Part shown: in pieces, positions 22,935 through 47,524 of the stretch
Layout: every line of letters starts with the position of its first letter
Position numbering within the stretch: position 1 is the stretch's first letter
NCBI GenBank assembly: GCA_043808155.1
Contig: JAZDFD010000026.1
Coordinates: 39,673-103,672 of the forward strand
From: Candidatus Iainarchaeum sp.
Lineage (GTDB): Archaea; Iainarchaeota; Iainarchaeia; Iainarchaeales; JAZDFD01
Length of the DNA: 64,000 nucleotides
Direction: 5' to 3'
Notes under the pieces: model-generated
The model's database searches: none
The model's input: only the letters and a program-made list of their open reading frames with translations
Told to the model about the DNA's origin: nothing
Made by a program: the position numbers and the translations under genes

Positions 22935-23070
22935 ACAACCCGATTGCGTACGGGTACTCCGCGTGCCATTTTCAATGGCACTGTCATCATTTCTGATTGC
23001 GTAGATTGGATCCGCAATTCCGCAATGCAATATGTGTGAGTTTTCGTTTGACTCAAACCCACGATAATAT
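22935..23070 (-). repeat. Long hairpin-rich leader of tRNA-Ser containing leader-type hairpins and a core module (23030-23070)
   Basis: ACCCG/CGGGT and GTGCCATT/AATGGCAC hairpins. ATATGTGTG..TTTCGTTTGACTCAA..CACGATAATAT matches the tRNA-Glu intron. Confidence 0.7.
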
Positions 23071-23112
23071 ATCATAAATTAGAGAAACTAATATAAAACG
23101 CGCCTAAGCTTA

Positions 23113-23238
23113 TTACTTCAAAAGTCTGTTTTGTCTGTTATGTGCCTGCTGAGTGTTATGAGGCCATTTAACCTTCGGAATTGCAAACTCTGAACCGCGT
23201 TTCTTTTTCATTCCTGTCCATAAATCACTGAATGCCAT
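23113..23238 (-). CDS. Small hypothetical protein (41 aa)
   Basis: Manual translation MAFSDLWTGMKKKRGSEFAIPKVKWPHNTQQAHNRQNRLLK; TATA-like box upstream. Confidence 0.35.
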   Translation of the reverse strand: MAFSDLWTGMKKKRGSEFAIPKVKWPHNTQQAHNRQNRLLK

Positions 23239-23280
23239 ATTAATATTGTATATTATGATTATTTAAAAATAGCGTGAGAA

Positions 23281-23421
23281 TTACACTGACATCTTTTTTT
23301 TCTTTCGTCCAGAACGAGCTTTTAATTTTTCTTCCCAATCTGGTCCGAGAATTAATGAATTGAAAGGATGCGCAATTGCTTTTGCAAATCTTTTGTGAAT
23401 TGGTTCTCTTGGCTTAGGCAT
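23281..23421 (-). CDS. Small basic hypothetical protein (46 aa)
   Basis: Manual translation MPKPREPIHKRFAKAIAHPFNSLILGPDWEEKLKARSGRKKKKMSV; TATA-like box upstream. Confidence 0.45.
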   Translation of the reverse strand: MPKPREPIHKRFAKAIAHPFNSLILGPDWEEKLKARSGRKKKKMSV

Positions 23422-23479
23422 AATAGAAATTAAGTCATAGATGTATTTAAAACTGTCGTTAAAAAACTAAAAAAAGAAA

Positions 23480-23551
23480 CGCCTTGGCCAGGATTCGGAC
23501 CTGGGACCCTCCGGTTAACAGCCGAATGCTCTACCGCTAAGCTACCAAGGC
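23480..23551 (-). tRNA. tRNA-Asn(GTT)
   Basis: GCCTTGG/CCAAGGC acceptor, TTCGG-CT-GTT-AA-CCGGA; the T loop reads TCCGAAT. Confidence 0.93.
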
Positions 23552-23975
23552 AGAAAAAGTTTACAGAATAATTGTCGGTAAATTATTTAAAAGCACGTGT
23601 TGCATAAGCAATGAAAATATACATTAGAATGCAATGTTAAAACACTCATTCCCCAGACTTATGAAATTCCATCTTTAAACACTGGTTTGCAAATCAAACC
23701 TGAAAAACCATATTCTGCACTTAATAAAGTTAAAAAAGCCCAGATTACGCTTTTTTTCAATTTTTTTACTGGTTAAGGCACTTAACAATATGAATTTTGA
23801 TAGTATTGTGTTATATTGAATTATACATAATAAACAGAGTGTTATAAGTGCTTATTTAGAGCATTTGAGTGTTATAATTCTCCTATACATAAAAAGGAAC
23901 CTATATTAAGGAGTTTAGGGGTTATATATTAGCATAAATTAATTTTATTGATTTATAACGAAGGGGTGAGATTAG

Positions 23976-44042: not shown

Positions 44043-44043
44043 A

Positions 44044-44169
44044 GTCCGGTTTCGACCGGACGTACCGAGATATGTGCACTGTTGCTTTGGCAACAGCGCG
44101 GTAATATATTTCGGAAACCGTGCCACAGCACAAAGCGTGTGGCACCCGCACTAGCCGGGCGTTCGGCTA
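44044..44169 (+). repeat. Structured tRNA trailer element, homologous to 16758-16936
   Basis: UUCG hairpin, CCGAGATATGTGCACTGTTGC...GCAACAGCGCGGTAATAT, GTGCCAC/GTGGCAC and TAGCCG/CGGCTA hairpins. Confidence 0.88.
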
Positions 44170-44344
44170 AGGATATTTACAACATTATTAAATTTTTTAG
44201 TTGTTGCAGGTTGTGAGATTTTTCACAACTCAAGAGCAGAGATTTTAGGATAAATCTTCATCCTAAAATTAGTGACGCGTACATTGGGAAAGGTCTAACA
44301 GACATGTTTTTCTGTGTCGTAATGAGTTATACCTTGAGAAAAAA

Positions 44345-47305
44345 ATCGTTAAGCCACTTAGTGGATAACTAGGCTCAAGCAGCGATGAAGGGCGTGGCAA
44401 GCTGCGAAAAGCTCTGGCGAGACGCATGCAGTCTTTGAGCCAGAGGTTCCTGAATTATTCCGTAAGGAAAGCTGACGCGGTGAATTGAAGCATCTTAGTA
44501 ACCGCAGGAAAAGAAAACAATCGTGATGCTGTAAGTAAGAGCGACTGAAAACAGCATAGGGCAAACTGAATCCCAGTTAGCAATTTCTGGGAGATGTGGT
44601 GTGGCTGGTTAAAACCAAAAAGATTAGATGAAGTTCTCTGGAAAGAGATACCATAGAGCGTGATAGTCGCGTAATTGAAAACTTAGAGGTTTATTGTCAG
44701 TACCTAGAGTAGTATGCATTGGTTATTGCGTACAAAGCAGGGAGCATTAACTCCTAACCCTAAATATGACTTGAGACCGATAGTTCACTAGTACTGTGAA
44801 GGAAAGTTGAAAAGTATCCCTAACGGGAGTTGAAAAGCACTTGAAACTAAGTGGTTATAGGCTGGCAAGGCGTTAAAGAGAAGATGTTCTTTGAAGTGAA
44901 TATTGGAAACGATGGGAACGAAAAGAACGGATCAGCGTTTTGTCATTCGTCTTGAAACACGAGCGAGGGAGTTTACGGTTGTGGCAAGGTTAAGTCCATC
45001 ATGGAAATAACCAAAGGGAAACCAAATTTGCGCAACTTCGGTGAGGCAACAGGTATGAAAGTGCCTAAGTCACAGCCGTCAGACCCGAAACCGAGCGATC
45101 TAATCCTTAGCAGGGTGAAGTCCCCCATCCGGGGGATGGAGGCCCGAAACTAGTGTTAGTCTATCTGCTTAGGTGACTTGGGATTAGGCGTGATATTCGA
45201 TTCGCGCTCGGCGATAGCGGGCTCCTCCCAAAATAACTCTAAGGTTAGTCTGGCTTGAGATAGTCAATGGTGTAGAGATACTGATTAGAAAGTACTTGGA
45301 AGAAATTCTGAGCTTTCTTGTCAAACTCCGAAGTTATTGACGTCTTTGAAAGCTGGAGTAGGGGCCGCGGGGTAAGCCCACGGTCCGAGAGGGGAACAAC
45401 CCAGACCATGGTTAAGGCCCTTAAATGCTGGTTAAGTGTAATGTCGAAGGATGTCCTTGTTCTTAAACAATAGGGAGGTTGGCTTAGAAGCAGCCACCCT
45501 TTAAAGAGTGCGTAATAGCTCACCTATCTAGAATAAGGGTTCTGAAAATAATCGGGGCTAAACCAGCTGCCGATACCATGGGGCACCCTCAGTAGAGGGT
45601 GATCCGGTAGGGAAGGTGTTCTGATAGGATAGAAGCAGGTTAGTAATAACCTGTGGACCTGTTAGAAATATGGATCCTCGTGCTAGTAATAACGATAGAG
45701 TTGTGAGAATCAACTCCGCCGAAAGGGCTAGGGTTCCTTAGCGCTTATCATAAGCTAAGGGTTAGTCGGTCCTAACCTATCTCTTAATTAGAGAATAGGG
45801 AATGGGAAGCAGGTTCATACTCCTGCACCACACAAATACTTTTGGTAACAATAGTCAGATTTCTGACACTTCGGGCTAAGCAAAGTTCTCTTGTCTGGGA
45901 ACTTAACTGGAATAAATCTCTGGAGAAGTGTAATACTGAGAAAGAGATTAAATCTAGGAATAGCAGCAATGTTTTGCCGAGGCCGGGAGTCCTTGAAAAG
46001 GAAATCTGGATGAATTTTGTGTGACCGTACCGAGAACCGAGAAGGGTGCCCCTGGCTGAGAAGGCCAAGGCGTATCAGGGTAACTCCATCAAGGGAATTC
46101 GGCAATTTAGCCCCGTATCTTCGGTATAAGGGGTGCCTGCAATTTGTCATTGCAGGTTTCAATAACAAGGGGAGTCCGACTGTTTATTAAAAACACAGGT
46201 CCCTGCTAGCCAGTAATGGTGTGTATAGGGGCTGACTTCTGCTCACTGCCAGTACGTGAAACTCCAGTTCAATGGAACTAAGCGCTGGTGAAGAGCGGGC
46301 CTAACTCTGAGGCTCTCACGGTAGCGTAATACCTTGCCGGTTTATTGCCGGCTTGCACCAACGAAGTAACGAGATTCCCGCTGTCCCTGATGGGGGCCTG
46401 ATGAACTCGCTGCGCAGTGAACATGCTGCGGACCTCTAGCGGGAAGAGAAGACCCCACGGAGGTTTACTACAATCTGATGTTGGATTGTGGTTTTTGGAA
46501 TGAAGCGTAGATGGGAGACTTCGAAGCAATTTCGCAAGGGATTGTGGAGTCGCCAATGGGACACCATCTTTTAGAAACTACAATTCTTACCTGCAAGGGA
46601 ACAGCATTTGACGGGTAGTTGGACTGGGGCGGTACGCCCCTGAAACAGTATCAGGGGCGCCCAAAGGTCTGCTCAGGCGAGTCAGAAATTCGCCATAGAG
46701 TGTAAAGGCAAAAGCAGGCTTGACCGTGTTTCACATAGCAAGAAACGCGGATTCGAAAGAAGGGCTTAGCGAACGTCAATGTGCTCTTTAATGGAGCCTT
46801 GGTCTTACAGTGAACTTACCCTGGGGGTAATTGAGTGGTCGTGAGTAAGAGTCCACATCGACCTCACGGTTTGCTACATCGCCGTCGTCTCATGGCATCC
46901 TGGCCGTGCACAAGCGGCCAAGGGTGGAGGTGTTAACTCATCAAAGCCATACGTTAGTTGGGTTGAGAACGGTGCGAGCCAGTTTTGATACTATCTGCTA
47001 GGGGTGTCGTTTGTCTGAGGGGAAGTTCCAGTCAGTACGAGAGGAACGCTGGGTCGTAGCCACTGGTGTACCAGTTGTCCGACAGGGCAATGCTGGGTAG
47101 CTACGCTATAATGGATAAGAGCTGAAAGCATCTAAGCTCGAAGTCATCCCTAAAAATAGACAAACATTTCTGAAATCTTTTCTTCCTCGGAAGCGAAGGT
47201 ATAGGAACAAGAGCACCGGTAAAAGACCGGTTAGATAGGTTAGTGATGTAAGTTAGAAGCTTCGGCGACTAATTAAGTCTACTAATACTAAAAGCTCGAG
47301 GGTTT
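44345..47305 (+). rRNA. rrl: 23S rRNA (ends approximate)
   Basis: Conserved 23S segments including the sarcin-ricin loop AGTACGAGAGGAAC and P-loop CTGGGGCGG. Processing stem 44281-44347 / 47300-47359. Confidence 0.97.
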
Positions 47306-47361
47306 TTTTCTCATTAGTTCTTATACATAGAAAAACTGTCTGGACTTAATTTCCAATGTAC

Positions 47362-47412
47362 GTAGGGGACTCTGTCCCCTTACAAACCCCTGAAATTTTT
47401 TAGGGGTTTGTG
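47362..47412 (+). terminator. Twin hairpins after the 23S processing stem (possible terminator)
   Basis: GGGGAC/GTCCCC and ACAAACCCCT/AGGGGTTTGT inverted repeats, followed by a T tract. Confidence 0.5.
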
Positions 47413-47490
47413 AATTACTTTTTTTAAATGTAAAAACGTAAAATATGAAAATACAAAATCTAAACATCCGACTGCAAAAAGATAATCAAA

Positions 47491-47524
47491 ATATTACTGC
47501 ACTGTCACAGACAGTGCTACATGT
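47491..47524 (-). repeat. Isolated core module of the tRNA-associated element
   Basis: Minus strand reads ACATGTAGCACTGTC-TGT-GACAGTGC-AGTAATAT, compared with the Leu copy ATATGTGCACTGTTGC...GCAACAGCGC-AGTAATAT. Confidence 0.65.

Follow-up and report, generated by a model that had tools for sequence, protein, structure and literature searches.

The DNA analyzed here is a stretch of 64,000 nt (hereafter the window) from Candidatus Iainarchaeum sp., a DPANN archaeon, and comprises positions 39673-103672 of contig C26 of a 1.08-Mb archaeal genome (G000) that is split into 35 contigs, has a G+C content of 35% and is 88% complete. According to Rfam, the window contains an archaeal 16S-tRNA-Ala-23S operon, an RNase P RNA and five transfer RNA (tRNA) genes. 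The subject of this study is a short structured repeat that lies beside or within several of these genes. An earlier note on the window had described it as a core motif of two fixed sequence feet around a variable hairpin (ATATGT-hairpin-RRTAATAT), with five copies next to genes for stable RNAs. All five copies were recovered at the same positions, and the neighboring tRNA-Leu, -Ser, -Glu, -Ala and 23S ribosomal RNA (rRNA) genes were identified as named by Rfam and tRNA calls. Four of the copies match ATATGT-N18-34-RRTAATAT exactly, whereas the fifth (47491-47524) reads ACATGT and is missed by the structural model described below. The motif also proved to be incomplete as a unit, since it forms only the 3′ two-thirds of a longer element with an upstream hairpin and a linker.

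Copies were scored with a covariance model (R1) built from an alignment of 24 copies from this genome, using a cut-off of E ≤ 0.001. Positions are window coordinates unless a contig is named. The gene for tRNA-Leu (16587-16756, plus strand; RF00005, 41.2 bits) contains an intron and is followed by a full element on the same strand at 16758..16826, which consists of a first hairpin (hp1, 16758-16775) that begins 2 nt past the end of the tRNA (16756), a linker (16776-16783) and the motif (16784-16822). This copy scores 74.5 bits with R1 and folds at -29.1 kcal/mol (z -4.35 relative to shuffled sequences). Two plus-strand copies lie upstream of the minus-strand tRNA-Ser gene (22851-22934). The first, at 23008..23074 (motif 23030-23070; R1 39.6 bits), has a decayed hp1 part and a fold no better than shuffled sequences (z -0.10). 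The other, at 22932..22989, is a degenerate sixth copy in which hp1, linker and hairpin are kept and the feet have decayed (R1 36.2 bits, E 7e-6); its hp1 side abuts the 5′ end of the tRNA gene. The plus-strand tRNA-Glu(UUC) gene (34087-34257) has an intron of about 99 nt that holds a copy at 34120..34197 on the same strand (motif 34152-34193; R1 78.1 bits; fold z -2.25), with hp1 starting directly past the 5′ splice site. In the rRNA operon, tRNA-Ala (43970-44042, plus strand) lies between the 16S (42323-43805) and 23S (44337-47311) genes and is followed in the spacer by a plus-strand copy at 44038..44111 (motif 44070-44107; R1 70.2 bits; fold z -3.48) that is 89% identical to the Leu copy over 94 nt. 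The remaining copy is located on the minus strand at 47491..47556 (motif 47491-47524), about 180 nt beyond the end of the 23S gene (47311), and represents a sub-family. It has its own hp1, a linker ending in ...GAACAC, the 5′ foot ACATGT and a hairpin followed by AGTAATAT. R1 gives no match to it at the cut-off, and its membership therefore rests on the pattern, its own upstream hairpin and its sub-family relatives on contigs C23, C7, C12 and C1. The two hairpin types noted earlier, and the A-C mismatches in the stems of the Leu, Ala and Ser copies, were confirmed.

The complete element is about 65-80 nt long. Read on the ATGT strand, it begins with hp1, a hairpin of 5-6 bp that usually has a TTTCG-type loop, and continues with a conserved linker of 8-10 nt containing an invariant CG. 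The feet then pair with each other as an outer helix of 4-6 bp, which closes an asymmetric 2x4 internal loop (GT opposite RRTA), and above this loop stands a second hairpin (hp2) with a variable stem of 8-10 bp. The two ends of the unit differ, with hp1 at one and the TAATAT foot at the other, and there are no terminal inverted repeats; inverted hp1 modules at both ends occur only in the composite trailers of tRNA-Leu and tRNA-Ala.

This structure is strongly conserved. When hp1, a 4-bp feet helix and an 8-bp hp2 were scored over the 24 copies of this genome, 94.6% of cells were paired and 11 of the 17 pairs had changed on both sides in a compensatory manner; none of 500 shuffles paired as well, and none of the slid registers came close. 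The pair just outside the feet is changed from A-T to T-A in 9 of the 24 copies, without exception. In an alignment of 81 matches (79 distinct), drawn from this genome and over 20 others, 96.9% of cells are paired and 16 of the 17 pairs are compensatory; the alignment was fitted to the model and hence favors the structure. The hairpin had been proposed to be under structural selection, and compensatory changes in both own and foreign copies bear this out. The feet fared differently. They had been regarded as free recognition boxes, yet in other genomes they covary, as where C in the 5′ foot accompanies G in the 3′ foot (C-G for T-A), and the supposedly fixed feet are therefore the two strands of a helix. 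What the aligned copies truly conserve is the asymmetric internal loop (GT opposite RRTA). By eye, this loop was compared with the consensus sequences of three known motifs, namely the K-turn, the bulged-G motif of sarcin-ricin/loop E and the 11-nt tetraloop receptor, and none fits the register supported by covariation. A coding reading was also rejected: short open reading frames (ORFs) cross two of the copies, but the lengths of hp2 differ by numbers that three does not divide.

The strict pattern occurs four times in the window against 0.01 expected, and none of 100 shuffles reached four. A genome-wide search for the pattern, which had been proposed beforehand, gave 27 matches compared to 0 for a reversed control, far above background; on visual inspection, the feet enclose a clean hairpin in 21 of the 27. 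Relaxed scans and inspection raised the number of good copies in the genome to 36, and R1 gave 41 matches from a scan in which 150 of 568 candidates were scored.

The copies are located at gene boundaries. Ten have hp1 positioned 1-3 nt past a tRNA 3′ end on the same strand, so that 10 of the 41 tRNA genes of the genome carry the element at their 3′ end, and three occupy the introns of tRNA-Glu, of tRNA-Arg(CCU) and of a tRNA on contig C20. At least ten others are inverted and place hp1 right next to the Shine-Dalgarno sequence and start codon of protein genes; one ribosomal-protein operon holds four of these, including one before the L19e gene. When the matches of this genome were compared with its ORFs, none lay clearly inside coding sequence, and all were at ORF edges or in the flanks of RNA genes. 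The association with stable RNAs that had been noted in the window is strong, with 14 of 41 copies within 60 nt of a tRNA gene compared to 4.4% of non-ORF sequence (binomial p ~1e-9), but it is not exclusive. Given the gene-start copies, the bias towards RNA genes belongs to a broader preference for gene termini. Of 53 copies in other genomes, 15 lie at or inside an aragorn-predicted tRNA or no more than 120 nt away; in five of the 53, hp1 starts 1-3 nt past the tRNA end, and three are in tRNA introns. Relative to known transcription, the element is in the sense orientation in tRNA introns and in the rRNA spacer, and antisense in the ribosomal-protein operon spacers.

Direct repeats of target sequence flank several copies. 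In this genome, the repeats measure 20/20, 17/17, about 30 and 33 nt, and they end at a distance of 0-4 nt from hp1. When flanking repeats were compared with 500 random controls, eight of 35 copies reached or exceeded the 99th percentile, and of these five are true target repeats and three are other repeats or paralogous tRNAs. Duplications of 23/23 and 34/35 nt that begin right after the 3′ foot were found in other genomes, as were tandem arrays of the form target-element-target-element-target. Overall, the duplications are variable and range from 14 to 35 nt. At the end opposite the precise hp1 boundary, some copies carry a variable A/T-rich tail of 0-27 nt, whereas the cleanest insertions have none. 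No common fixed short word was seen at the junctions. As a side observation bearing on microhomology or copy choice, the sequence before the left duplicate resembles the 3′ foot of the element in two clean insertions and does not at other sites.

Empty sites were sought by comparing the contigs of four groundwater metagenome runs with the ribosomal-protein operon (C28:47000-57000). Contigs of relatives from two of the runs, about 93-95% identical to the operon, join across three of its four copies. Contigs of two runs skip 87 nt from operon position 8778 to 8866 and join sides of 255 and 175 nt without any intervening letters; from 9314 to 9424, 109 nt are replaced by 16 nt; and from 3719 to 3813, 93 nt are skipped with sides of just 24 and 31 nt. 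The fourth site is rearranged in those runs. Each skipped interval contains one copy of the duplicated flank together with the model match. The L19e site in its joined form has one Shine-Dalgarno-plus-ATG, whereas the host has two with the element between them. As read from these contigs, the empty sites show presence/absence differences between close lineages.

The element is patchily distributed among relatives. It was detected in 35 of 151 genomes of the order and in 20 of 66 genera, with patchiness also within families, and in a phylum-wide draw in 33 of 151 genomes (0 of 11 in families f33-f37); both sets of counts are lower bounds owing to the fast filters used. Positive genomes hold 1-19 copies, compared to 31-41 in the host genome, and the same architecture recurs across genomes with quite different stems. 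Many copies in related genomes are located at contig ends. In four genomes of two families (G018, G073, G099 and G032), one shared protein gene (C-terminus ...RWAD, stop) has the element at its end and a duplicate of its last codons, and two of the four have a tandem pair there. The earlier note had taken the repeat for a family spread through the genome rather than an ordinary gene signal, and its 41 matches and patchiness across the order agree with this.

The conserved fold, the occurrence in both orientations, the target duplications, the empty orthologous sites and the patchy, variable copy number are together best accounted for by a mobile, non-autonomous element that depends on its fold for spread or tolerance. 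With a probability of roughly 0.7, we consider the motif to be the core of a small, non-autonomous and protein-less mobile insertion element that is present at about 40 gene boundaries of this DPANN archaeon. Its copies have been inserted at gene boundaries and tolerated there, at tRNA 3′ ends, in tRNA introns and, always inverted, at gene starts. Insertion duplicated 14-35 nt of target, which leaves an interrupted gene end intact on one side. Copies in tRNA introns must be removed by the splicing machinery of the host. In the predicted minimum-energy fold of pre-tRNA-Glu, a 4-bp helix at the anticodon loop is flanked by a bulge of 3 nt on the 3′ side and, on the 5′ side, by two unpaired nucleotides followed by hp1; with regard to the bulge-helix-bulge structure as a mark of archaeal introns, most copies of the element lie outside tRNAs. 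The conserved fold may be needed by the mobilizing machinery or for tolerance by the cell. This machinery is not encoded by the element and would probably be a host or other trans-acting activity, perhaps acting by copy-choice replication or by breaks staggered by 14-35 nt. That the gene-start copies all face one way could reflect selection against the T-rich end in the sense strand of operons. A bolder proposal, which we put forward only tentatively, is that this is a new kind of prokaryotic mobile element, protein-less and inserting at gene termini with 14-35 nt duplications, that would use only the nucleic-acid machinery of the host (replication/repair or tRNA processing) and would be a living source of tRNA introns and of split or duplicated tRNA ends.

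Several results weigh against a mobile element. No match to Y1/HUH (PF01797), Cas1 or reverse transcriptase (RT; PF00078) was found in the 88%-complete genome, and no mobilizing enzyme emerged from searches that covered Y1, TnpB, Cas1, RT, tyrosine recombinases and LAGLIDADG proteins and included no DDE family. Assuming that the same 151 genomes of the order were drawn in the element, Y1, RT and LAGLIDADG scans, the presence of none of these three proteins discriminates element-positive from element-negative genomes: Y1 was found in 10 of 35 positive and 33 of 116 negative genomes, RT in 6 of 35 and 14 of 116, and LAGLIDADG in 35 of 35 and 98 of 116, with both Y1 and RT absent from the five element-richest genomes. 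We also know of no transposase family that long and variable target duplications would fit. Some positions are occupied in more than one genome, namely the tRNA-Glu(UUC) intron in both G000 and G049, the tRNA-Ala trailer in both G000 and G015, and the RWAD gene end in the four genomes above; recurrent positions would also be expected from a functional RNA. None of the ten tRNA-trailer copies of the host genome has a target duplication, and these could be old or could have arisen differently. Finally, the empty sites come from contigs of relatives at about 93-95% identity rather than from the same population, and since a precise deletion between duplicated flanks looks alike, they do not give the direction of the event.

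The strongest competing explanation is a functional RNA module of tRNA or mRNA maturation, serving as a protein-binding or processing signal or as a hairpin that stabilizes or terminates transcripts. The strong covariation and the conserved internal loop across families are in line with it, as are the precise position of hp1 1-3 nt past the discriminator base in ten tRNA genes here (and in five of 53 copies elsewhere), the shared intron position in tRNA-Glu of two families, the copy after tRNA-Ala in the rRNA spacer of two genomes and the T-runs behind some copies, although a run of at least five T soon past the foot occurs in just 3 of 10 tRNA-trailer copies. Against it, the element stands in both orientations relative to certain transcription, and it is lacking at three orthologous operon sites of close relatives as well as in 116 of 151 genomes. 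Just 10 of 41 tRNA genes have it at the 3′ end, both target duplications and tandem arrays exist, and Rfam 15 matched only tRNA, rRNA and RNase P in the window, with a best E-value of 0.97 in the Leu trailer. A purely functional RNA signal fits the tRNA-linked copies and not the remainder, and we regard it as unlikely.

Retroposition similar to that of short interspersed elements (SINEs) is still less probable. Under this explanation, a tRNA 3′ trailer RNA released at hp1 by RNase Z and ending in a U-rich terminator would give rise to a cDNA that is inserted at staggered nicks. The position of hp1 1-3 nt past tRNA ends would suit such a source, and the precise hp1 end opposite a variable A/T-rich tail, together with the variable length of the duplications, resembles the products of retroposition. 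The cleanest insertions are tail-less, however, and no RT match was found in the 88%-complete host genome, nor does the presence of RT separate element-positive from element-negative genomes across the order (see counts above).

The mechanism favored in the earlier note was a folded single-stranded DNA site moved by an enzyme encoded elsewhere, such as an HUH nuclease (the tyrosine transposase (RAYT) associated with repetitive extragenic palindromes (REPs), or the IS200/IS605 TnpA) or an integron-type tyrosine recombinase. Its observation that no transposase is visible near the element holds. The genome encodes two TnpB-like (Cas12f1-like_TNB) ORFs of 413-414 aa (C23:24585-25826 and C7:8169-9413), and these loci were rejected as a source because their ends and flanks have no similarity to the element. 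There are also two tyrosine recombinase matches and 14 LAGLIDADG matches. As a separate observation, LAGLIDADG occurs in 133 of the 151 genomes, with up to about 30 matches per ~1-Mb genome, an unusually heavy load of inteins and homing endonucleases. The note had further pointed to a strand asymmetry in stem mismatches, which stands in the host genome (9 A.C to 1 G.T in hp2 stems) and fails as a general rule: across genomes the A.C:G.T ratio is 11:2 in the outer helix, 14:8 in hp2 and 4:7 in hp1, and the two strands are alike in folding energy (p=0.21). To our knowledge, none of the REP/RAYT, IS200/IS605 and attC systems makes target duplications of 14-35 nt. A model of this type captures a structured site moved in trans, and the hairpin with conserved flanks, the mismatch bias of the host copies and outer helices expected if one strand folds, and the two tyrosine recombinase genes would suit it; it is nevertheless very improbable, as no suitable enzyme supports it (the 88%-complete genome gave no Y1 match, Y1 presence does not track the element across the order and the TnpB loci have unrelated ends) and as the long target duplications, a strand bias that is not general and the lack of cassette arrays speak against it.

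The element is accompanied by other repeat modules. A GC-rich leader module that ends in a reverse half element of hp1 plus linker (16547..16586, plus strand) abuts the 5′ end of tRNA-Leu, and further copies of this module adjoin tRNA-Ala (43941-43969) and a tRNA of contig C35 (18291-18330). Several families of GC-rich leaders abut tRNA 5′ ends exactly, and three leader types are each common to 2-4 tRNA genes. Downstream of tRNA-Leu, a reverse half element (16908-16935) is fused to an 18-nt fragment resembling a tRNA 3′ end (16936-16953; together 16908..16953, plus strand). Thirty nucleotides across this junction are identical to C6:23491-23520, beside a free-standing LAGLIDADG ORF, which suggests that flanks may travel with the repeat. 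The tRNA-Leu trailer also holds a second repeat module (16849-16935) made up of two ATTTC...GAAAT-type hairpins and the reverse hp1 half element; copies with 95-97% identity are found at C28:26420-26508 and C1:86900-86988, and one of these abuts a tRNA 3′ end. A third hairpin repeat, AATTTCAGGGG...GGGGACRGAGTCCCC, is located at about 47350-47400 on the minus strand and at C7:19445 and C23:50806, with its core in three exact copies, and adjoins sub-family copies whose linker ends in ...GAACAT or ...GAGCAT. The intron of tRNA-Leu (16623-16707) is very A/T-rich, consists largely of repeated AAAAGTTT-like units and is without the element.

An open-access keyword search, which did not extend to supplements, returned no description of such an element in DPANN archaea. 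By analogy, the closest documented counterparts appear to be the hairpin and double-hairpin elements of AT-rich mitochondrial genomes. Double-hairpin elements of Allomyces were reportedly described by Paquin et al. in 2000, and tandem arrays are said to have been described by Weiller in 1989. Organelle hairpin elements are likewise short, protein-less, GC-richer than their surroundings and intergenic, are found next to the tRNA and rRNA genes of small, AT-rich genomes, merge and shuffle as modules and display presence/absence polymorphism (PMC4478555, PMC2800124). For the GC clusters of yeast mitochondria, the mobilizing enzyme is described as unknown, resident homing endonucleases or RT have been proposed, and the target of GC42 is a 2-nt AG (PMC4478555); for the repetitive hairpin-forming elements of sponge mitochondria, a lack of flanking duplications is mentioned (PMC2800124). 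The archaeal element, in contrast, resides in a free archaeal genome, occupies precise gene termini and tRNA introns and has duplications of 14-35 nt.

Other known systems share individual features. The REPs and bacterial interspersed mosaic elements (BIMEs) associated with RAYT are, as commonly described, extragenic palindromes present in tens of copies, with a conserved short flank and a variable stem, in operon spacers; they differ from the archaeal element in that the latter has long duplications, a two-hairpin unit, a paired outer helix and tRNA-intron copies, and no RAYT/Y1 gene was found in its genome. The ends of IS200/IS605, their miniature derivatives and miniature inverted-repeat transposable elements, or MITEs, are also short and non-autonomous, with structured ends and the need for a trans-acting enzyme. 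IS200/IS605-derived elements insert by a fixed 4-5 nt target and are not known to duplicate it, whereas the archaeal element shows no evident fixed target word and makes duplications, and a matching transposase was not found among the families searched; unlike DDE-type MITEs, it lacks terminal inverted repeats, and its duplication of 14-35 nt is not of a fixed short length. Integron attC sites are similar in having two complementary end boxes around a variable center, with structure conserved over sequence, but the archaeal element has no cassette arrays or integron integrase context and instead has core-gene termini and long duplications. Transposed archaeal tRNA introns were reportedly described in Thermoproteales by Fujishima et al. 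in 2010. There, related sequences in different tRNA introns, at positions removable by the splicing endonuclease, imply gain by movement of short elements; the present element is found in addition in trailers, leaders and protein-gene starts. Its copies outside tRNAs with target duplications point to insertion at the DNA level that is not confined to tRNA.

New in this work are the covarying structure with paired feet, the class of gene-start copies, the empty sites, the distribution across the order and the negative tests for enzymes. For annotation, GC-rich hairpins of this kind should not be called processing signals, terminators or small RNA genes before polymorphism has been checked. If the repeat is indeed mobile, even symbiont-type archaeal genomes of about 1 Mb harbor a selfish repeat that is active, depends on its structure and remodels tRNA flanks, operon spacers and assemblies. 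Its long variable duplications, in the absence of a recognizable transposase, Cas1 or RT, would point to an insertion mechanism that is undescribed for prokaryotic miniature elements. The occurrence of the same element as a tRNA trailer, as a tRNA intron and beside duplicated tRNA ends would offer a concrete and testable route to the gain of archaeal tRNA introns.

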